From Takakia lepidozioides (Eukaryota; Plantae; Bryophyta), in contig JAKLZA010000089.1 of assembly GCA_030704615.1 (NCBI GenBank), positions 1 through 9,737 on the forward strand: 9,737 nt of DNA, in the 5' to 3' direction. The stretch's first letter is position 1. Each line of letters starts with the position of its first letter. The notes under the pieces were generated by a model. That model saw only the letters and a list, made by a program, of their open reading frames with translations, did no database searches and was not told the origin of the DNA. Below are positions 1 to 9,737 of the stretch, piece after piece. A program made the position numbers and the translations under genes.

Positions 1-1480
1 TGGACAGGCTGTGATGGTCTGTGATGGGTGTGACAGGCTGTGCCTGTCCCTGTGGGGCTGTGAACGGGCTTTGTCAGGCTGTTGACAGGCTGTGCCCAGT
101 GGCCCTTTGGGGCTTGACTTGACGCGGGCTGTGACAGCTTGTGCTGAGGCCCTTTGGGGCTGGACGGGCTGTGTGGGCTGTGACCAGCTGCCCTGTGCCC
201 TTGGGGCGTTTGACGGCCTGTGTCAGGCTGTGGCGAGCTGTGACGGCTGTGCGGGCTGTGACAACAGGCTGTGTCCCTGAGGCTGTGGGGCTGTGACGGC
301 TGTGAACAGGCTGTGGCGAGCCTGTGACCAATGCTGTGCCCAGGCCTTGGGGCGGTGACGGGCTGTTGACATGCTGTGCCCAGGCCTGTGGGCTGTGAAC
401 GGGCTGTGACAGGCTGTGGCAAGCTGTGCAGGCTGTGATGGGCTTGAGGTTGTGACAGGCTGTGCCCTGTGCCTCTGTGGGCTGTGACGGCTGTGTCAGG
501 CTGTGACAGCTGTTCCCATGGCCTTTGGGGCTGTGACTGTCTGTGACCAGGCCATGCCTGAGGCCTTTTGGGGCTGTGACGGGCTGTGAGGGGTCTGTGA
601 CACAACATGCTGTGCCCTGTGCCCTTTGGGGCTGTGAACGGCTGTGTTCACGGCTGTGGCGAGCTGTGACGGGCTGTGAGGGGCTGTGACAGCTGCCCAG
701 TGGCCTGTGGGGCTTTGACGGGCTGTGACAGGCTGTGGCAAGCTGTGACCGGCTGTGATGGGCTGTGATGGGCTGTGACAGGCTGTGGCCCTTGGCCCTG
801 TGGGGCTGTGACGGGCTGTGTCAGCTGTCAGGCTGTGCCCAGTGGCCTTTGGGGCTGTGACGGGCTGTGAGTGGCTGTGACAGGCGGTGCCCTGAGGCTA
901 TGGGGCTGTGATGGGCTGTGACAGGCTGTGGCAGCTGTGACAGGCTGTGCCCATGGCCTTTGGGGCTGTGACGGGCTGTGAGGGGCTGTGACAGGCCGTG
1001 CCTGAGGCCTTTGAGGCTGTGACGGCTGTGAGGGGCTGTGAACAGGCCGTGCCATGGCCTTTGGGGCTGTGACGGGCTGTGAGGGGCTGTGACAGGCGTG
1101 TCCTGTGGCCTTTGGGTCTGTGAACGTGCTGTAGGGCTGTGAACAGGCCGTGCCCATGGGCCTTTGGGGCTGTGACGGGCTGTGAGGGGCTGTGACAGGC
1201 CGTGCCTGAGGCCTTTGGGGCTGTGAGGGCGTTAGTGGCTGTGACAGGCCGTGCCCTAGGCCTTTGAGGCCTGTGACGGCTGTGATGGGCTGTGACGGCT
1301 GTGAGTGGCCCTGTGACAGGCCGTGCCTGAGGCCTTTGAGGCTGTGACAGGCTGTGAGGGGCTGTGACAGGCTGTGCCCAGTGGCCTGTGGACTGTGACG
1401 GCTGTGACCAGTGAGCTGTGTGGCCTGTGCTGGTCTGTGGTGGCCCGTGTTGACCTGTGGACGGCCTGTGCTGACTCGTG
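1..1480. repeat. Tandem minisatellite array: ~10-bp subunit GGCTGTGAC(A/G)-like, organised as ~51-bp monomers (GGCCTTTGGGGCTGTGACGGGCTGTGAGGGGCTGTGACAGGCCGTGCCTGA-like); truncated by the left window edge
   Basis: The GGCC(T/C)TT anchor recurs at 955, 1006, 1056, 1107, 1159, 1210, 1259, 1331 and (as GGCCTG) 1383, with spacing 49-52 bp and one of 72. GGCTGTG recurs about every 10 bp throughout, and units decay between ~1410 and 1480. Confidence 0.97.
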
Positions 1481-1929
1481 GAGGCACTGGTGGACTGCCT
1501 AAGGACTGGCATGTGGTCTGGAAGGCCGAATTTTGAAGCTCGTGGAGGGCGGTTTGAGGAGTATCTTCATGATATTCCCATGGTCATGCAAGTGAGGAAG
1601 AGAGGAGAGGAAGAGTGTTGGGATGAGAGCATGCTGGGGTTAGGCATTGCTTTAGCTTCTCTTCCTCGTAGTTTCCACCCTCTCATTAGGCCAAGACCTT
1701 TCCGTAGGTGGAGGCAAGAGTCAGTCCGGGTTTGGGCTGGGGTGTCCTTGCAGGAGCAACACCGTGGAGTTGTTTTTGGTGTGGGGGAGTTGTCGATCTG
1801 ATTTCTTGTGTTTGGATCCCCTCCATACCTGCATGCTTGACTGTGCGCCATGCTAGTTTTGTGTGGGCGCTTGTTTTTATAGGTGATTGGTCCGGATTTG
1901 ATCACCGGCCAGTCCTAGAGCATGCTGTC

Positions 1930-2016
1930 GATGGTGAGGCTGGGGTGATGACCAGCCAGACCATCATTGTTTCTCCTGTGGTGAGGTTGGAGGTGATGAC
2001 CAGCCAACCATAGGAG
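1930..2016 (+). repeat. Two imperfect ~33-bp direct repeats (1932-1964 and 1979-2011), each able to form a hairpin
   Basis: TGGTGAGGCTGGGGTGATGACCAGCCAGACCAT versus TGGTGAGGTTGGAGGTGATGACCAGCCAACCAT. Confidence 0.85.
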
Positions 2017-2080
2017 TGCTTGCGGTGGATGCAGGTACAGGTGTAGGCTATGTTAGGAACTTAGTATTCCAAACCATAAG

Positions 2081-2088
2081 CCGCAACA
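2081..2088 (+). other. Possible 3' end of the 5' LTR (...CCGCAACA)
   Basis: Ends in ACA, complementary to the TGT after the candidate PPT, and lies shortly before the gag frame opens. No canonical TGG-starting PBS follows, so the call is tentative. Confidence 0.35.
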
Positions 2089-2349
2089 GGTTCTCTACCC
2101 GGTTACCTTGTGAGAGGGGGTTAGGGACATGTTCATGACCGGTTGAGTGTCAACACGGAGGTGCCACTAGTTGCTGGGGACAGTGCCGGTTCGAGCACTA
2201 GCGATACTAGTGGGTACACGAGACGAGGTGTGCGGTTTAGGCCACCTTCACCTCCTGTGTCTTCTACGGAAGGTTCTGATTCGGATTGTGAATCAGGAGG
2301 ACTCATACCGGCGGTGCAAGTTGTTTCTTTGCCATTGTTGTGGGACACA

Positions 2350-5300
2350 ATGGAGGAGATGTATGGAGCTACCAAGGGGCCACGAAGGTACTCTGGGGCG
2401 GTGGGCACCATCGAGTTGGATGATTTTATCCAAGAGTTTGATAGTTGGTGTGATTTGCAGCAAATGCGCAATCCACAACTATTTACGCCTTTCATGGCAT
2501 GGAAAGGGCTGTTTCAGCACCTTGAGGGGCCGCCTATGGATGATTACCATGAGTTCAGGCGGGGGCATGAGGTTGAGATCGAGGAGTGGAGGATGTACTG
2601 GTCACCCGACTATGTCTCCATCACTAGGGGCACTAGAGCCACGAGGGCAGTGGCTACACCTGCCGCTGCACCGGCAGCTTCAGCAAGCAGCAGTGGGACT
2701 GGTGGTACAGTAGCTACGACGTCCACCCAAGCCACTACCGCACCAGCACTAGCACCCGTGCCTGCCTTCAACCCTGTTGTGGAGTTCTTCGAAGAGTTGA
2801 GAGGGAACTACCAAGGGGTGAGGACAGAGAAGTTGCGGAGCTTGCAAGAGTTCCAACGGAAGCCGACCGAGAGCTTGAGGGAGGCTTTCACTCGCATGAG
2901 GCGCTTGATAAATGTAACCCAAGGGGTTACGGAAGCTCAGGCAGTCCAATTCTGGTATGGGATATTGGACAAGGAGCTGAGGAGAAGGGTGCGGGATGCA
3001 ACTCTCCTACAAGCGGCCCAACCCACCTTAGCAAATGTGTTTTTGCTGGCAGAGCGGATAGAGCTCAACATGGTGGAGGAACGAGTGGTCATGGTGGGAT
3101 TTGCTAAGGAGACACCACGGGGTAGTGGTGCTCCTAGCCAACCACTACCTCAACGTGCTCAAGGCAACAAGGGGGCTCAGGTGAAGCTCAGGGAAGGGCA
3201 GAGAGGACCTCAGATGCAGGGGTCTCTCCCTTCATTTGCTGGCCAACAACGGGCGGATGTGGTGTGCTGGACATGTGGAGGACCCCATGTCAAGAAGGAT
3301 TGCCCAGAGGGAGGCAAAGGGCCGGCACATGCACAGCCTGCACAGTTGCAGTGTGGGCATTGTGGCAAGCACGGGCATGGAGAGGCCCAGTGTTATGGTT
3401 TGCATCCTGAGTTGCGCCCAGGCCAGTTCCAAGGGAACAATGGTGGCCGGGGGCGAGGTGGAGCAGCCCAGAGAGGACGAGGTGGCCAGCCACGAGGTGC
3501 AGGCCAAGGGCAAGCTCAACATGGCCAAGGACGCGGAGGTCAGGGTGTTGACCAAGGCATGGCCAACCGGCTTCAGCAGCTAGAGCAGAGGCTCGCTGCC
3601 ATGGCTACAGCTCAGGTGGTACCGGCTCTAAGGCCGGATGGTCCACCTCCTGCTCCTGAGGGAGGAGATATGGGAGGCATGGGATTCATGTGTGGAGCAG
3701 CACTACCACTAGTGCAGGTGGAGTCTGCTGCAGCCGTGACTCGAGGAGCAGCACGAGTTCCTGAGCCACGAGGTGCAGAGGTGGAGTTGGATCCACAGCG
3801 TGGGGAGGCAAGCCGTCAGGCTAGGCTTCCTCAGTCATTCACATTGGCGGAGACAGTGTCGACGCCATCCATGGCACCTAGTTCTCGCCCGACTGTTACC
3901 GAGGCGGAGGTTACTATGCCATTGGGGAGAGCTACACGGGTAGCACCACTACCTAGTGTTGCCAAGGCTACGGCAGCTAGTGTGCTGCTAGGAGCGGCCA
4001 CATCTGTGTGCCAGGCTCCATTGTTCTCGGCTACCATGATTGCGACGCCGGGGGTAAGACCAGCTGAGGTGTTCAGGCTGGCAGCTACACTCTGTGAGAG
4101 TGGGGAGGTTACTTCATCTTCTGCGGAGATAGTGGGAGGTGTAGTGCCGGAGGGATCCTCGGATTTGAGGGTCAAGACTGCCACGGCGGCGCCATGGCAA
4201 GCTGCAGCTGCCAGGTTGATGGAGCTGCCAGCTAGGCCAGCCATTGAGCGCGCCATGGTGACACCTGGAGTTGTCATGTTAGACAACCAGGATGGCATTT
4301 TCTGTTTGAGTGGACCGGCAGGCAAGAGGTACCGGCCACTGCGGGTCTTGTTGGACTCGGGAGCTCAGCCATTGATGCTGGGCAGAGCTGCTATTGCAGG
4401 CTTGGGCCTCACGGAGGCGGATATGGAGCCTTGTCCTTTCCAGATACAGACGTCTCTGGGAGGATCGGAGCAGGCTCGGGGCATGACACGGCGTGAGTTG
4501 GCTATCAGACTACGGCCGGATCACCCTACAGATGGCTCAGTGATGCGAGCCAAGGCCATTGTGACAGACGCAGTCTCATACGATGTCCTGGTTGGTGGGG
4601 CAGTGTTGTACCCCATGGGCTTCACCCTGGATTTTTGGGAGGAGTCAGCTTCCTATAGGCCTGCATGGCAGTCAGGGGAGGGCCGGCGTGTGCAGCTCCC
4701 TGTGACGTTCATAGGAGGAGTTGCGGTTGCCCAGCGAGGCAAGATGCCGACACTAGCAGCATTCACAGCGGCAGTGAGTTGGCCTAGAGAGTTGCTTGAG
4801 GGCAATGCTCATTCAGAGGATGTACCACCTCCGGGAGAGCAGGATGACATGTATGGTATGGCGGAGTTGCCTACCATGGTTGCTCAGACTCCATTGTGGG
4901 GCACGAGCAAGGATTTGCAGCGGGATGCTGATCGACGGGTGCAACAAGCCTGGGTGGAGGCTTTTGTACCGTCAGGAGAGGAGGAGAGTGTGGGGATTGC
5001 ACCAGGACCACCTCAATTGTCTCCATTGGACACCACACCTATTGTGTGGCAGTATCCGGATGAAGGCATTTGTCTTCTGGACTTGTTTGGCGGGATCAGC
5101 ACCGGATTGGCTGCTGTGTTACAGGCAGGTGTACGAGTTCGGCGTTACCTGTATGTGGAGAGGGATGAGACTGCACGACGCGTTTCACTTCGCCATGTTG
5201 CTCAGTTGGTGCAGCGGTACCCTGAGTTGTTGTCGGTGTCTGCAATTCGTGGATATCAGCAGGCCTTGCCAGCAGACATTTCGTTGCTGGGGGCGCAGGA

Positions 5301-6315
5301 TTTGGAGCGGGTTGGCTCCATTGATCTGGTAGTGGCAGGTTGGCCCTGCCAAGGGCATTCATCAGCCGGGCATGGCAATGGATTGCGAGACTCGAGGTCG
5401 GGTCTGTTTTGGGAGATGGTGCGGGTTTTGCGCCACTTGCAGCTTCATCAAGCTGTATCTCCAGCATACATCTTGGAGAATGTGCCACTGATGGGCGATT
5501 CTCGGGCCAGGGTGATGGCCAGTGTGCATCAAGTCCGGTCGTGGCTTGGGTCAGCAGTGTTGCTAGATGCAGCTACAGTGGGGTCACGGGCTCATCGTCC
5601 ACGGCTATGGTGGACTAACTTGATGCCACCCGCACTGCTCAAGCGTGCATTTGATGGGGTGCAGCGGCCAGCACATCTCACAGTGGATAACATTCTGGAC
5701 ACAGGGAGGCAGTCTCAACGTGTGAGACACGATGACCGTTCGCCTTTGGCAGTGGTCAACAAGGTGGGTCAACCACGAGCAGCATTACCTACACTGCTCA
5801 GCTTCCCAGGATCGCATGCTTTCCGGGATAGTGGACCTGGCCTCCTGTGGGATGCTCAGTTGCAGCAGTTAGTGGAGCCTAATGCTGACGAGCGTGAGCG
5901 GGCAATGGGTTTTACCACTGGTACCACGGCGGTGTCGTCTCTTTCTGAGGCATCACGTCGTCAAGTGTTGGGGCAAGCAATGGATCTCAATTGCTTGACC
6001 TGGATTATCAGCTTGGCTCTGGCTGAGCAACGCAGAGTGCGGAATACACTTCCCTCAATGGTCTCTCTGCCTACCGAGACGGTACAGGCAGTGAGTGGGG
6101 GCGAGCATGTGAGGACCACGGGGTGCATGCATCCATGGCACACGTGGGAGGTGCTCGAGGTTCAGAGGGAGTTGGCAGCCAAGGCGGCTGTGATGGATGA
6201 GGTTGGGGATTCTTCTCGGGTTGAGGAGGTCCTCAAGGATGAGATGATGGGGCAGGATGAGGCCTTGTCATTGACTGAGCAGGTAGGGAGTACTGCTCAA
6301 GAGGTTGCAGCATAG
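2350..6315 (+). CDS. gag: ORF1: Gag - aspartic protease - DNMT3-like C5 cytosine methyltransferase polyprotein (1321 aa from first in-frame ATG; frame open from 2125, ORF-track start is TTG 2143)
   Basis: Gag-like N-terminus (PRRYSG...LDDFIQEFDSWC; FQRKPTESLREAFTRMRRL; FWYGILDKELRRRV), two CCHC knuckles, protease LLDSGAQ, and C5-MTase motifs I, IV, VI, VIII, IX and X. Ends at TAG 6313-6315. Confidence 0.92.
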   Translation: MEEMYGATKGPRRYSGAVGTIELDDFIQEFDSWCDLQQMRNPQLFTPFMAWKGLFQHLEGPPMDDYHEFRRGHEVEIEEWRMYWSPDYVSITRGTRATRAVATPAAAPAASASSSGTGGTVATTSTQATTAPALAPVPAFNPVVEFFEELRGNYQGVRTEKLRSLQEFQRKPTESLREAFTRMRRLINVTQGVTEAQAVQFWYGILDKELRRRVRDATLLQAAQPTLANVFLLAERIELNMVEERVVMVGFAKETPRGSGAPSQPLPQRAQGNKGAQVKLREGQRGPQMQGSLPSFAGQQRADVVCWTCGGPHVKKDCPEGGKGPAHAQPAQLQCGHCGKHGHGEAQCYGLHPELRPGQFQGNNGGRGRGGAAQRGRGGQPRGAGQGQAQHGQGRGGQGVDQGMANRLQQLEQRLAAMATAQVVPALRPDGPPPAPEGGDMGGMGFMCGAALPLVQVESAAAVTRGAARVPEPRGAEVELDPQRGEASRQARLPQSFTLAETVSTPSMAPSSRPTVTEAEVTMPLGRATRVAPLPSVAKATAASVLLGAATSVCQAPLFSATMIATPGVRPAEVFRLAATLCESGEVTSSSAEIVGGVVPEGSSDLRVKTATAAPWQAAAARLMELPARPAIERAMVTPGVVMLDNQDGIFCLSGPAGKRYRPLRVLLDSGAQPLMLGRAAIAGLGLTEADMEPCPFQIQTSLGGSEQARGMTRRELAIRLRPDHPTDGSVMRAKAIVTDAVSYDVLVGGAVLYPMGFTLDFWEESASYRPAWQSGEGRRVQLPVTFIGGVAVAQRGKMPTLAAFTAAVSWPRELLEGNAHSEDVPPPGEQDDMYGMAELPTMVAQTPLWGTSKDLQRDADRRVQQAWVEAFVPSGEEESVGIAPGPPQLSPLDTTPIVWQYPDEGICLLDLFGGISTGLAAVLQAGVRVRRYLYVERDETARRVSLRHVAQLVQRYPELLSVSAIRGYQQALPADISLLGAQDLERVGSIDLVVAGWPCQGHSSAGHGNGLRDSRSGLFWEMVRVLRHLQLHQAVSPAYILENVPLMGDSRARVMASVHQVRSWLGSAVLLDAATVGSRAHRPRLWWTNLMPPALLKRAFDGVQRPAHLTVDNILDTGRQSQRVRHDDRSPLAVVNKVGQPRAALPTLLSFPGSHAFRDSGPGLLWDAQLQQLVEPNADERERAMGFTTGTTAVSSLSEASRRQVLGQAMDLNCLTWIISLALAEQRRVRNTLPSMVSLPTETVQAVSGGEHVRTTGCMHPWHTWEVLEVQRELAAKAAVMDEVGDSSRVEEVLKDEMMGQDEALSLTEQVGSTAQEVAA
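3265..3393 (+). other. Two nucleocapsid zinc knuckles: CWTCGGPHVKKDC (CX2CX3HX4C) and CGHCGKHGHGEAQC (CX2CX4HX4C), followed by an RG/RGG-rich tract (~3442-3540)
   Basis: Motifs read directly in the ORF1 translation, starting at codons 3265 and 3352. Confidence 0.9.
4330..4640 (+). other. Retropepsin-type aspartic protease domain
   Basis: RVLLDSGAQ (catalytic D at 4354), flap-like IQTSLGG, and C-terminal YDVLVGGAVL matching the retropepsin D-h-h-h-G motif. Boundaries are approximate. Confidence 0.85.
5068..6020 (+). other. C5 DNA cytosine methyltransferase domain, DNMT3-like
   Basis: Motif I LLDLFGGISTG, motif II YVERD, motif IV DLVVAGWPCQ (catalytic Cys codon 5347), motif VI ILENV (5476), motif VIII AHRPRLWWTNL (5596), motif IX ERERAMGF and motif X RRQVLGQAM. 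These parallel animal DNMT3 as recalled (VLSLFDGIATG, DLVIGGSPCN, LFENV, AHRARYFWGNLP, EMERVFGF, RQRLLGRSW). Confidence 0.93.
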
Positions 6316-6321
6316 CAACCA
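6313..6321 (+). promoter_or_regulatory. Candidate programmed stop-codon readthrough signal TAG-CAA-CCA (UAG-CARYYA)
   Basis: The only stop between ORF1 and ORF2, which share a frame. The 3' hexamer CAACCA fits the tobamovirus-type CARYYA consensus, and 6316-6474 contains no in-frame stop. Confidence 0.7.
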
Positions 6322-9300
6322 CGGGACGCGTCCTCTACCTCTAAGCCCACTGGACTTAAGGTTGCAGTTACGGAGGACAATTGGGAGCCTGACATTGGAC
6401 CCATTGTCACCGGAGGAGAGAGACGACGTATACGGCGGTTCCTGAGGGCTTACAGGAATTGCTTTGCCTTCAGTTTGAAGGACTTGGGAGCACTGAAGGG
6501 TCAAGAGATCCGTATTGAGTTGGCCACTGACACGCCAATCTTTCGGAGACCCTATAGATACAGTGACATGGAGAGGTCTTTGATTCAGATGAGGACTCAA
6601 GATCTCTGGGAGGCAGGTTTGGTGGAGCTCTCTGGTGGAGAGTATGCTTCAGCCACAGTGATGCCAGCCAAGAAGGATGTCTATGGCAATTGGACGGAGA
6701 GACGTATGTGCGGTGATTACCGGCCTGTAAATCGTCAGACCAAGTCCGATAAGTATGCCATGCCAACACCAGAGGAGATCTTTGATGCCATCGGGCATGC
6801 TAAGGCCTTTAGCACTTTGGATTTACGATCCGGATATCACCAGTTGCCAATCAAGGAGGCGGACAAGCAGAAGACGGCATTCTGGGGGATCAATGAGCAC
6901 GGCAAGGATTGCCTATATCAGTGGCGGTTCTTACCATTTGGGCTTAAGAATGCTCCTGCAGAGTTTCAGAGAGTCATGGATAGGATTCTAGCAGGGGTGG
7001 ACTTTGCTCGGTGCTACATAGATGACATCATCATCTTTAGTGTTACGATGGAGGAGCATGAGAGACACCTTCAGGTGGTATTGGAGCGCTTGAGAGCGCA
7101 CGGATTGAAGTTGCATCCGGGGAAGTGCAAGTTTTTCCACAACCAGATTGAGTATCTGGGTCACATGATATATCCTGGAGGATTGGGGGTACAGCAGACT
7201 AAGGTAGAGGCCATTGCACAAATTCCACGCCCCACGGATGTGAGCCGAGTTCGAGCTTTCATGGGGTTGGCAAACTATTATAGACGGTTTGTCAAGGGAT
7301 TTAGTACCATTGCAAAGGCTCTAACCAAGCTGACCAAGGTGGACCAGGAGTGGCAGTGGGAAGATGAGCAGGAACGAGCTTTTCAAGAGCTCAAGGCGAG
7401 GTTGACCTCGGCGCCTATCTTGAGACGACCTATCAGGGGGCGTCCCTTTCAGCTGCATACGGATTGGAGCATGCTGGGGCTTGGAGCGGTGCTCACACAG
7501 GTGGATGATGAGGGAAGAGAGTTCGTAGTGGCTTACGCTAGCCGCTCAAACAACGCTGCAGAGGCTAAGTACAGCTCATATGAGGGAGAGTGCTTAGCTG
7601 CAGTGTGGGCCGTGGCACACTTCAGGTGCTATCTATACGGCAATCTTTTCACCCTTGTCACGGATCACCAGCCACTCAAGTGGTTGATGGAGTCAGACAA
7701 GCTTACAGGGAAGCTTGCACGGTGGGCACTTATACTCCAGGAGTATGACTTTCAGGTTGTGCATCGACCGGGTTTGGTCAATCGGGATGCGGATGGATTG
7801 AGTCGCAATCCATGCATGAGCCAGCAGGATGACACTGGAGCTCGGTGGCATGGTGAGACGGACGAGGAGATGGTGCCGGGATGGCACGCATCTGCATTTT
7901 TGTGTATCTTGGCATCGGGAGGTCAGATTGGACCTACAACAGGGATGACTGTAGACGGAGTGTCTGAGGACCCTGAGGCTAGTGATGAGCTAGGTGGTGC
8001 CAGAGATATACATGAGGATTCGGCTGTGTTGGACTACCTCCGCACGGGAGACACGGCAGCCATTGTGACTGCCAGGGAGAGGGATCGGATCCTGCAACGA
8101 GCCAAGAGGTTCAAGTGGGAGGGGATACACCTACTTCGAGTGTGGGAGGGTGGTCGGGTGAGGATTGTGCCTCACCCCACACAGCGTGCACGGTTAGTGC
8201 GGCATGCCCATGAGGAGTTGGGGCATTTTGGAGTGCGACGCACTCACAGTTTACTGCAGGGGCAGTATTGGTGGCGTGGTATGCATACAGAGGTGCAACA
8301 GTTTGTGGCTAGGTGCATGGTGTGTGACAGGGTGCGTGCTTCATTCAATGCCCCTACACCACAGTTGCATCCTTTACCTATCATGGGATTGGGCTACAGG
8401 TGGAGTCTTGACTTCGCAGGACCGTTGCCACTGACTATGCGCCACCACAGATATGTGTTGGTGATGGTGGAGCACTTCTCCAAGTGGATTGAGTTGGTTC
8501 CATTGCCTGACAAGGCTAGTGAGGGGGCTGCGTATGCATTCTTGGATCGTGTGCTTAGCCGATTTGGTGCTCCAGCTGAGGTACTCACGGACCAAGGGAG
8601 AGAGTTCTTGGGGGAGTTTCAGGCTTTGTGTGATAAAGCCTTGATCGACCACCGCACCACTTCTCGGGATCATCCTGAGGCCGATGGCTTAGCAGAGAGA
8701 GTTGTTCAGACGGTGAAGAGGGGTTTGCGCAAGTATGGCTTGCAGAAGGGACACCTAGGAGATTGGGATCTTCAGGTTCCTTGGTTAGCTATGGGCTACA
8801 GGTTCAGCAAACAAGCATCACTTGCCTCCTTCTCACCATATTTCCTTCTCTTTGGCCGAGAGCCGGATTTGCCTGCAGCCATTCGTAGGGACACTGCTCA
8901 AGTCCTTAACCTTGACGATCCGGACGTGTGGGTACGTGCATGTGATCAGCGTGCAGAGTTGTTCAAGAAAGTCATGCCCATGGCTTTTGAGAACCTTGCC
9001 ATTGCACAGCACCGTGATACGTTGAGGTATGCCACTATACGTGGTGGAGGATATCGTCCCGGGGTTCGGAGGTTTAGCCCTGGTGACTATGTTTATTTGC
9101 AGCAGACTGCTCCTACGACTCTGGATGTTACTGCAGGGCGTGTTATTCTGAGGGTTCGAGAGGTGTTGCCCTCAGGGGTCCTGATCTTGGAGGGTCGGGA
9201 TGGCATGACTTGGAAGGACCATGTGCGTAATTGTGCGCCATGTCACCTTCCCAATGTCGATGGCAGAGTTGACCCAAACTTGGCAGTGGTACCTGCAGGT

Positions 9301-9450
9301 TTGAGGTGCATGCTCTGTGGGTCTGCCAAAGGGGCAGCCACCATGCTGGTGTGTGATCGATGCTCAAGGGGTTGGCATATGGGATGCTTGACACCACCTC
9401 TTGAGAAGGTTCCTGACGGAGATTGGTTGTGTCCACACTGCTTGGGATAG
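6316..9450 (+). CDS. pol: ORF2: Pol (reverse transcriptase - RNase H - integrase - PHD finger), 1044 codons in frame with ORF1
   Basis: The frame is open from directly after the ORF1 stop (QPRDASS...RRFLRAYRNCFAFSLKDLG, a typical RT-preceding segment). The ORF-track start 6475 is an internal TTG. RT, RNase H, IN and PHD motifs are all intact, ending at TAG 9448-9450. Confidence 0.93.
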   Translation, partial: QPRDASSTSKPTGLKVAVTEDNWEPDIGPIVTGGERRRIRRFLRAYRNCFAFSLKDLGALKGQEIRIELATDTPIFRRPYRYSDMERSLIQMRTQDLWEAGLVELSGGEYASATVMPAKKDVYGNWTERRMCGDYRPVNRQTKSDKYAMPTPEEIFDAIGHAKAFSTLDLRSGYHQLPIKEADKQKTAFWGINEHGKDCLYQWRFLPFGLKNAPAEFQRVMDRILAGVDFARCYIDDIIIFSVTMEEHERHLQVVLERLRAHGLKLHPGKCKFFHNQIEYLGHMIYPGGLGVQQTKVEAIAQIPRPTDVSRVRAFMGLANYYRRFVKGFSTIAKALTKLTKVDQEWQWEDEQERAFQELKARLTSAPILRRPIRGRPFQLHTDWSMLGLGAVLTQVDDEGREFVVAYASRSNNAAEAKYSSYEGECLAAVWAVAHFRCYLYGNLFTLVTDHQPLKWLMESDKLTGKLARWALILQEYDFQVVHRPGLVNRDADGLSRNPCMSQQDDTGARWHGETDEEMVPGWHASAFLCILASGGQIGPTTGMTVDGVSEDPEASDELGGARDIHEDSAVLDYLRTGDTAAIVTARERDRILQRAKRFKWEGIHLLRVWEGGRVRIVPHPTQRARLVRHAHEELGHFGVRRTHSLLQGQYWWRGMHTEVQQFVARCMVCDRVRASFNAPTPQLHPLPIMGLGYRWSLDFAGPLPLTMRHHRYVLVMVEHFSKWIELVPLPDKASEGAAYAFLDRVLSRFGAPAEVLTDQGREFLGEFQALCDKALIDHRTTSRDHPEADGLAERVVQTVKRGLRKYGLQKGHLGDWDLQVPWLAMGYRFSKQASLASFSPYFLLFGREPDLPAAIRRDTAQVLNLDDPDVWVRACDQRAELFKKVMPMAFENLAIAQHRDTLRYATIRGGGYRPGVRRFSPGDYVYLQQTAPTTLDVTAGRVILRVREVLPSGVLILEGRDGMTWKDHVRNCAPCHLPNVDGRVDPNLAVVPAGLRCMLCGSAKGAATMLVCDRCSRGWHMGCLTPPLEKVPDGDWLCPHCLG
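6600..7180 (+). other. Reverse transcriptase domain (Ty3/Gypsy type)
   Basis: RMCGDYRPVN, FSTLDLRSGYHQL, KTAF, LPFGLKNAPAEFQR, catalytic YIDD (7015-7026), KCKF and IEYLGH. Confidence 0.97.
7441..7806 (+). other. RNase H domain (Ty3/Gypsy type)
   Basis: FQLHTDWS (D at 7462), GLGAVL, YSSYEGECLA, VTDHQPL, LARWAL.LQEYDF and ADGLSR. Confidence 0.95.
8203..8880 (+). other. Integrase (HHCC zinc-binding domain plus DDE core)
   Basis: HEELGHFG (8209/8224) and CMVC (8314/8323). Catalytic D in WSLDFAGP (8410), D in LTDQG (8590) and E in LAERV (8695), giving D-X34-E spacing. SPYFLLFGR follows. Confidence 0.95.
9307..9441 (+). other. PHD finger (C4HC3) at the integrase C-terminus
   Basis: CMLC-X11-CDRC-X4-HMGC-LTPPLEKVPDGDW-L-CPHC, with the typical PHD signature CL.PPL..VP.G.W.CP.C. 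Confidence 0.93.
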
Positions 9451-9699
9451 TGGCAGTGGACATGACTGGAGGCAGCTAACAAGACATGGGAGGCCAAGCT
9501 CATAGGAGTCAATACATGAGATCCCAAGCTCAAGTTCACAAGTTGCAAGACGGCGACTAACGATGGGGCAACTCTTGCACCCGGCCTCTTGATCTATCGA
9601 GTTTGAGTGTAGTAGGGATAGTGGTGGAGGACTTAGTGAGGCTATGGTCACTATCACATCTTGTGGCTACCTGGACTTAGAGGGACCTAAGCACCAGCT

Positions 9700-9710
9700 A
9701 GGGGGGCGAT
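9700..9710 (+). other. Candidate polypurine tract (AGGGGGG-CGAT)
   Basis: Purine/G run ~250 nt after the pol stop, shortly followed by TGTG, the usual PPT-LTR arrangement. Confidence 0.6.
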
Positions 9711-9737
9711 TGTGTGGACTAGTGACTGCCATAGTGG
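9711..9737 (+). repeat. Probable start of the 3' LTR (TGTGTGGACTAGTGACTGCC...), truncated by the window edge
   Basis: TG directly follows the candidate PPT. No matching copy was found within 1-2088, so it cannot be confirmed here. Confidence 0.5.

Follow-up and report, generated by a model that had tools for sequence, protein, structure and literature searches.

A Ty3/Gypsy retrotransposon in Takakia lepidozioides with a DNMT3-like methyltransferase domain ahead of a predicted leaky stop codon

In its accessible text, the study of de Mendoza et al. (2018, PMC5890265) reports the family KnitGypsy-Dnmt3 from Klebsormidium nitens only, and two further retrotransposon families with a cytosine-5 (C5) methyltransferase, SymbioDIRS-Dnmt3 and SymbioLINE-Dnmt, whose element classes differ (tyrosine recombinase, LINE); the accessible part of a bioRxiv paper (10.64898/2026.05.21.726589) describes EpiLTRs in Euglena and Cymbomonas, whose C5 methylase belongs to another clade (sister to DNMT4) and is found with Dam and a chromodomain. 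We examined a stretch of 9,737 nucleotides of Takakia lepidozioides ("the window"; assembly GCA_030704615.1, contig JAKLZA010000089.1, positions 1 to 9,737, forward strand). It contains one nearly complete, unbroken Ty3/Gypsy element on the + strand, with the domain order Gag-PR-DNMT-(UAG CAA CCA)-RT-RH-IN-PHD (PR, protease; DNMT, the methyltransferase or methylase; RT, reverse transcriptase; RH, RNase H; IN, integrase; PHD, PHD finger); the Gag-PR-RT-RH-IN order of Ty3/Gypsy elements was thus present. A first-pass annotation of this DNA had named the 2018 paper as precedent, and KnitGypsy-Dnmt3 of K. nitens (PMC5890265) is indeed such a precedent. We lean toward the reading that the element is an intact Ty3/Gypsy, likely of the KnitGypsy-Dnmt3 lineage, whose methylase would be made with Gag before a stop that is predicted to be leaky, packaged, and used to methylate the element's own new copy.

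The methyltransferase domain and the element that carries it

The first-pass annotation had claimed a complete C5 methyltransferase with six motifs, in frame after Gag and protease. A single open frame contains all six motifs in succession (LFGGIS at nt 5083, GWPCQG at 5338, ENV at 5476, HRPRLWW at 5593, ERERAMGF at 5890 and LGQAMD at 5968), spanning 5083-5985 in the order I-IV-VI-VIII-IX-X, and the frame was without a stop from Gag through protease and methylase up to the TAG at 6313-6315. The Pfam search proposed there matched DNA_methylase (E 1.7e-12, 47.9 bits; cut-off 22). Its placement of the methylase between protease and RT was right as to position but overlooked the in-frame stop that separates methylase from RT. 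It had also taken the linear motif order as DNMT3-like and not DRM; the exclusion of DRM stands (the circular permutation of DRM was absent, and DRM structures matched by sequence only residues 3-124), but the order is not diagnostic of DNMT3, since bacterial enzymes, HhaI among them, show it too when aligned.

Closeness to DNMT3 is here a ranking of scores, the trees being without host DNMT3, DRM, CMT and MET1 sequences. When the single sequence was searched against solved structures, DNMT3A was top (47.6 bits), followed by DRM (26.8) and HhaI (22.9); a 43-sequence profile gave 85.6 bits for DNMT3A, 47.8 for DRM and 31.8 for HhaI. The AlphaFold model of the methylase (pLDDT 93, pTM 0.92) overlaid DNMT3A end to end (Z 28.8, rmsd 2.5 Å over 272 residues; Foldseek E 2.5e-19), and Z-scores for other folds were 25.0 (CpG methylase 4dkj) and 23.4 (HhaI). 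By sequence and by predicted fold, the methylase is closest to DNMT3A. Among 166 dereplicated methylase rows of about 35-75% identity, the catalytic Cys was kept in 162/162 aligned rows, the ENV Glu in 165/165, and the motif VIII Arg in 159 and 161 of 162. A profile search for host DNMT3 yielded, in its best 150 of 13,539 matches, nothing recognizable as a host gene; the orders were element-like or methylase-only.

The features of the window are as follows.

1..1480: tandem array, 10-bp unit with 51/101-bp higher-order periods (TRF)
2350..6315, + strand: open reading frame 1 (ORF1), Gag, zinc knuckles, protease and DNMT3-like methylase; 1321 aa from the first ATG (2350), TAG at 6313-6315
3250..3393, + strand: two Cys/His zinc knuckles (nucleocapsid), read from the translation; no Pfam match
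4261..4674, + strand: aspartic protease, DSG motif at about 4354
5041..6024, + strand: C5 cytosine methyltransferase domain, DNMT3-like, all catalytic motifs intact (Pfam, motifs, structure comparison)
6313..6321, + strand: in-frame UAG followed by CAA CCA, fitting the CAR-YYA signal; predicted readthrough
6316..9450, + strand: ORF2, in the frame of ORF1 (Pfam domains; first Met only at codon 85)
6700-7170, + strand: RT (Pfam; YIDD present)
7357-7746, + strand: RNase H (Pfam)
8176-8340, + strand: integrase zinc-binding domain (Pfam)
8395-8676, + strand: integrase core (Pfam)
9307..9441, + strand: PHD finger at the integrase C-terminus (Pfam E 1.8e-10)
9700..9710, + strand: polypurine tract (PPT), read from the sequence
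9711..9737, + strand: start of the 3' terminal repeat (27 bases; repeat B in relatives), placed by its position after the PPT as in relatives; window end

The Pfam scan of the window protein gave no protease match; Asp_protease_2 matched the homologous stretches in relatives P0137 and P0151-P0153. Marchantia and Calypogeia proteins P0122, P0123, P0124 and P0129 stop 78-81 residues past the methylase (96 in the window), before RT. The tandem array is probably part of the element's 5' non-coding region: 651-1450 was covered by contigs of three DNA runs at summed depths comparable to those of the coding region (depth is not copy number), and in relatives L081 and L018 short GC-rich repeats lie between repeat A and gag. 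The 50 nt around the PPT matched the corresponding place in related loci at 86-90%, and contigs of other runs part from the window sequence after 9714.

Intactness, termini and relatives

The window was matched by 98,294 of the 2.79 million contigs of run X1, which may be the source sample (depth, again, is not copy number), and three DNA runs, one of which bears the label plant metagenome, covered all 30 bins of the window; the element family is highly repeated in the host genome. No RNA run was listed among those with the window, which has no bearing on expression. That the fusion is an assembly chimera, or a captured host gene that evolves neutrally, is hardly credible. In favor of a chimera, the window represents one assembled copy only, and there are apparent indel errors toward its ends: single-base indels against many contigs of the same organism were seen at 1-600, 1421, 1595, 2111 and 9714, none of them inside either ORF, which suggests sequencing errors. 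Chimeric assembly, named by the first-pass annotation as a ground for refutation, is ruled out because the architecture recurs in dozens of loci and proteins, some of them in chromosome-scale assemblies; moreover, contigs of other runs continue across both the linker-methylase and the methylase-RT borders.

Neutral capture is opposed by the purifying selection that the first-pass annotation had proposed to look for by the ratio of replacement to silent rates (dN/dS). Between divergent families, dN/dS of the methylase was 0.07-0.22 where dS could be estimated, and 0.135 for L018/L019 at an unsaturated dS of 0.25; in pairs of window and locus, methylase conservation was above that of protease and below that of RT. 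Common variants within the window's own family were scanned over 5041-6360 (40 of 43). Thirty of the 40 lay in the methylase, 19 silent and 11 replacement, a surplus of silent changes over the 35% expected (p 0.0017), although the counted variants are linked within subfamilies and not independent; none of the 30 made a stop or altered a catalytic motif. The tail behind the methylase had 2 silent of 10 variants, and none of the 40 fell at 6313-6321. Decayed Sphagnum-like copies weigh the other way, with median dN/dS of 0.60 for methylase, 0.65 for protease and 0.39 for RT, values that are as expected after insertion. Judged from these sequence comparisons, the methylase is under purifying selection.

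The window contains neither terminus of its element in full (the window starts within the tandem array and stops 27 bases past the PPT), and ends were read in relatives. These carry split A/B repeats in place of paired long terminal repeats, in the arrangement A (about 340 bp) - coding - PPT - B (112 bp) - A - B, with ends TGTC...GACA. The full A-coding-B-A-B form was present in L039, L068 and L075/L078 (L078:3886-13092, L039:1679-10805, L068:1768-10971), and the B-A junction also in L018, L026 and L081. Of the 8 loci that have both ends, 7 carry a 4-bp target-site duplication (TSD), representing 6 distinct insertions, and the eighth is truncated by the contig end; this shows that insertion is by integrase. 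Among 23 loci with B, 8 run into A, 14 do not and 1 was cut. Shorter A-coding-B copies (L030, L056) also carry a 4-bp TSD and are the commoner form at 3' ends (14 vs 8 loci); the two insertion forms may come from recombination of B with B or from integrase acting at the internal B end. No TGG-type tRNA primer-binding site was visible after A in the 6 loci inspected. The 10-bp unit of the array at 1-1480 is similar to the B-A junction motif GACA-NN-TGTC of related elements, which may be chance.

Relatives of the methylase were drawn from 120 of 269 and 79 of 79 matches, and those of RT from 120 of 5,920. Among the matches listed, close methylase relatives were found in Marchantia polymorpha (up to 76%), Calypogeia fissa (75%) and Sphagnum (71%), with others in M. 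paleacea and Riccia sorocarpa, and several bryophyte relatives sit on contigs of 13-49 Mb, being located on chromosomes in Marchantia, Calypogeia, Riccia and Sphagnum; the range extension to land plants that the first-pass annotation had raised is thereby supported in named bryophyte genomes. More distant methylase relatives occur, likewise among the matches listed, in Klebsormidium nitens (46%), Closterium and Monoraphidium. The RT search added Coleochaete scutata (70%), Tetraselmis and Tetrabaena, and a cluster look-up added Scenedesmus; a methylase profile search gave 599 clusters at 50% identity (E up to 1e-30). No named vascular plant was among the matches listed in these searches, most of which are nameless, so that this is not evidence of absence.

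Two layouts were seen. In streptophytes and Tetraselmis the methylase follows protease and precedes RT; in Scenedesmus, Tetrabaena, Monoraphidium and many others it follows RNase H and precedes integrase. The latter layout (P0349, P0295, P0197 and about 100 more) is one group in the methylase tree (100/96), which suggests one relocation or a second capture. Trees were made from dereplicated rows (118 of 162 for RT, 166 of 233 for methylase), the methylase tree from 46 picked rows and 5 phage enzymes. In the methylase tree the window shares a clade of 14 rows (100/100) with Marchantia, Calypogeia and Sphagnum and falls just outside a group (96/89) made up of the named bryophytes and L006; in the RT-RH tree (FastTree) it grouped with Calypogeia and Marchantia (96), Coleochaete being next (97), and both the window and K. 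nitens P0186 belong to a clade (99) that excludes other Gypsy elements. The family methylases clustered together against the phage enzymes (100/100; long branches meet at the root). The tree pattern fits vertical descent, from algae into land plants.

A bacterial origin was rejected, GTDB having 2 loci only (one complete element copy in a metagenome-assembled genome (MAG), read as contamination, and one 28% match), as was a phage origin, the 12 IMG/VR loci matching at 25-39% only. The complete copy, L081:1-9285, is a circularly permuted element in a cyanobacterial MAG, and related proteins P0020 and P0496 bear bacterial labels; all three are most likely eukaryotic contamination, and element copies thus contaminate bacterial MAGs. 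Loci L076 and L079 belong to a divergent subfamily in which a second fragment of protease and methylase lies inverted downstream of RT. Outside the clade, the Gypsy polyprotein P0315 has a Dam adenine methylase between protease and RT, in the slot of the window's cytosine methylase, and a PHD before integrase.

The stop codon after the methylase and the proposed role of the enzyme

Since the methylase lies ahead of the stop, it would be made at the level of Gag and not of Pol. We surveyed the junction in the best 80 of 177 metagenome loci, 59 of which had both the methylase end and the RT start. In frame were 36 of the 59, and in 36/36 a TAG or TAA at the homologous codon was followed by CAR-YY; the other 23 had frameshifts or insertions. 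In a DNA alignment without the window and four misaligned loci, the stop plus CAR-YY was kept in 52 of 55 rows. The full CAR-YYA occurred in three forms, CAACCA (window, L006), CAGTTA (L018, L019) and CAATCA (L026, L081), which encode different second residues, and silent sites have reached or nearly reached saturation between these families, a pattern that suggests constraint on the RNA. RNA folding 3' of the stop gave z-scores of -0.67, -0.86, -1.79 and -2.06 in four elements, with no common fold evident among them. In the accessible text of PMC2754532, CAR YYA is essential for readthrough in tobacco mosaic virus (TMV), which amounts to about 6-10% in stable Arabidopsis lines, and by analogy with this TMV-type signal the UAG of the window is predicted to be leaky.

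It is improbable that the methylase acts on complementary DNA (cDNA) while ORF2 is expressed through splicing, a subgenomic RNA or re-initiation instead of readthrough. Re-initiation is possible in the Sphagnum-like family, because an ATG directly follows its CAA CCC, six bases past the stop, and predicted ORF2 proteins P0200, P0202 and P0203 start at a Met just past the stop; in the window, however, ORF2 has no Met until codon 85, inside the conserved pre-RT stretch, the frame and CAR-YY context are conserved, and one contig of run X12 (its status as RNA is a guess) spans 5941-8113 without a gap.

On the favored reading, the majority of ribosomes would halt at UAG, giving Gag-PR-DNMT, and a minority would read through, adding RT-RH-IN-PHD. 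In Gypsy elements, what is encoded ahead of the gag-pol switch is produced and packaged in larger amounts than RT and integrase; therefore the methylase should be abundant where cDNA forms. It would enter the particle at about the stoichiometry of Gag, be released by the protease, and mark cytosines of the cDNA before or at integration, so that the new copy arrives marked. The element's cDNA is the most likely substrate, and CG the likely context by analogy with the DIRS-borne Dnmt3 domains, for which the accessible text of PMC5890265 reports de novo CG methylation in yeast.

The integrase C-terminus has a PHD finger and no chromodomain, the mark of chromoviruses, by Pfam; the finger is common to the clade in both methylase layouts, and its best solved matches were CHD4, KDM5B, PHF12, KDM5A and ATXR5. 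The PHD fingers of CHD4, KDM5A/B, PHF12 and ATXR5 are readers of unmodified H3 tails. The finger of the element would likely do the same, biasing the choice of target site, and our guess, by analogy, is that it may steer insertion away from H3K4-methylated promoters.

Several observations weigh against this scheme. In the accessible text of PMC5890265 the Klebsormidium enzyme (KnitGypsy-Dnmt3) gave no methylation in yeast, where human DNMT3B failed too, and its authors call the result inconclusive. The window element is CG-poor (observed/expected, O/E, 0.51-0.63) and not CWG-poor (1.2-1.7), but flanks and other Gypsy elements of related loci are as depleted in CG or more (O/E 0.21-0.44), because of which the depletion does not point to the element's own enzyme and was set aside as a non-discriminating sign of self-methylation. 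The Sphagnum-like family, which makes up 30 of the 36 in-frame loci, has CAA CCC (5/6 positions) and the ATG already mentioned. Algal P0243, P0357 and P0186 are predicted as one ORF from protease to integrase, and some algal members have the methylase between RNase H and integrase; a Gag-level dose is therefore not required family-wide. Finally, PHD-bearing relatives P0266, P0271, P0278 and P0282 have room for a methylase and gave no match to it.

An active methylase might instead work on nuclear chromosomal DNA (the insertion site, older copies or competing elements) and not on particle cDNA, which we consider unlikely, though the most probable of the alternatives. Catalytic residues would be conserved likewise, the PHD finger on the integrase makes the integration complex chromatin-directed, and the methylase adjoins integrase in chlorophyte-type members. 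In the lineage of the window, however, the stop leaves the methylase with Gag and separates it from the integrase and its PHD finger, and the Klebsormidium methylome is not unusual despite its elements (accessible text of PMC5890265). Less likely again is that the domain was retained to bind nucleic acid, to modify RNA or to act as a decoy of host silencing factors, and not for DNA methylation. The inactivity of KnitGypsy-Dnmt3 in yeast (PMC5890265, in part) agrees with this, and the predicted Gag-level abundance suits a binding or structural role, but the nucleophile Cys and ENV Glu are invariant in 162-165 rows over the whole identity range, the nearest folds are DNA enzymes (DNMT3A, DNMT3B, CpG methylase 4dkj), and with the profile DNMT2 scored far lower than DNMT3A (26 vs 86 bits). 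Beyond the single element, we put forward only tentatively that a Viridiplantae-wide, integrase-using clade with split repeats kept an active DNMT3-type methylase from green algae to land plants, and that a TMV-type leaky stop in the land-plant branch would load a capsid-level dose, so that new copies would be pre-methylated.

These elements bear on why transposons carry an enzyme that normally silences them. In Marchantia polymorpha, a model plant for which methylation mutants exist, the family lies on chromosomes, and the question is therefore testable in a land plant; the conserved, predicted leaky stop makes a sharp prediction on methylase dose and packaging. If the tentative Viridiplantae-wide reading is true, bryophytes would have in intact high-copy families such as this one a second source of de novo methylation, encoded by transposons. 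Element copies can also inflate counts of DNA-methyltransferase genes in bryophyte annotations.

Comparison with described systems

In the literature searched (subscription journals, figures and bioRxiv supplements being outside the search) no report was found of bryophyte members, the readthrough signal or Marchantia gene ids, and there was no mention in the accessible text of PMC6453930, PMC6317226, PMC12885004, PMC11982613, PMC10952607, PMC11244446 or 10.1101/363937; the main text of the REXdb paper (PMC6317226), so far as accessible, lacks the word 'methyltransferase'. A 2019 opinion (PMC6338049, in part) has methylase-encoding transposons absent from 'land plants, such as tracheophytes'. 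Two later papers from one group (PMC12344493 and bioRxiv 10.64898/2026.05.21.726589, both in part) write 'streptophyte' with bryophytes unnamed, and may include them. In the accessible main text of PMC5890265 the words PHD, Marchantia and chlorophyte are absent, though its Fig. 4c may show a PHD. Beyond what was found in print, then, are the bryophyte and chlorophyte range, the Gag-side methylase by way of a predicted leaky stop, the integrase PHD, and split repeats with 4-bp TSDs.

The methylase shares its catalytic fold and motif order with host DNMT3 of non-flowering streptophytes (PpDNMT3a/b; PMC6453930, in part) and with animal DNMT3A/B; it differs in that ORF1 has no DUF3444, PWWP or ADD match (Pfam), in its identity to DNMT3A of about 25%, and in being part of a polyprotein. 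Tobamoviruses (UAG-CAR-YYA) and the rice Gypsy element RIRE2 (candidate readthrough; PMC2754532, in part) likewise have an in-frame UAG and CAR-YYA before the polymerase, whereas in the window element the predicted readthrough would set the methylase dose relative to RT and integrase.

Most similar is KnitGypsy-Dnmt3, which, in the accessible text of PMC5890265, has in common with the window element the Gypsy domains and an intronless, non-permuted Dnmt3-like domain under purifying selection (Ka/Ks about 0.2 or less), and whose DIRS-like split repeats (Fig. 4 legend) match the A/B repeats of the window's relatives. K. nitens P0186 (PR-DNMT-RT-RH-IN), with a methylase 46% identical to that of the window and a place in the same RT clade, is by species and architecture presumably one of that paper's copies. 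From these likenesses in sequence, the window element most likely belongs to the KnitGypsy-Dnmt3 lineage and is not a new capture; the difference is that PMC5890265, as far as accessible, places the domain in the Pol ORF, whereas the methylase of the window ends ORF1, before a conserved stop.

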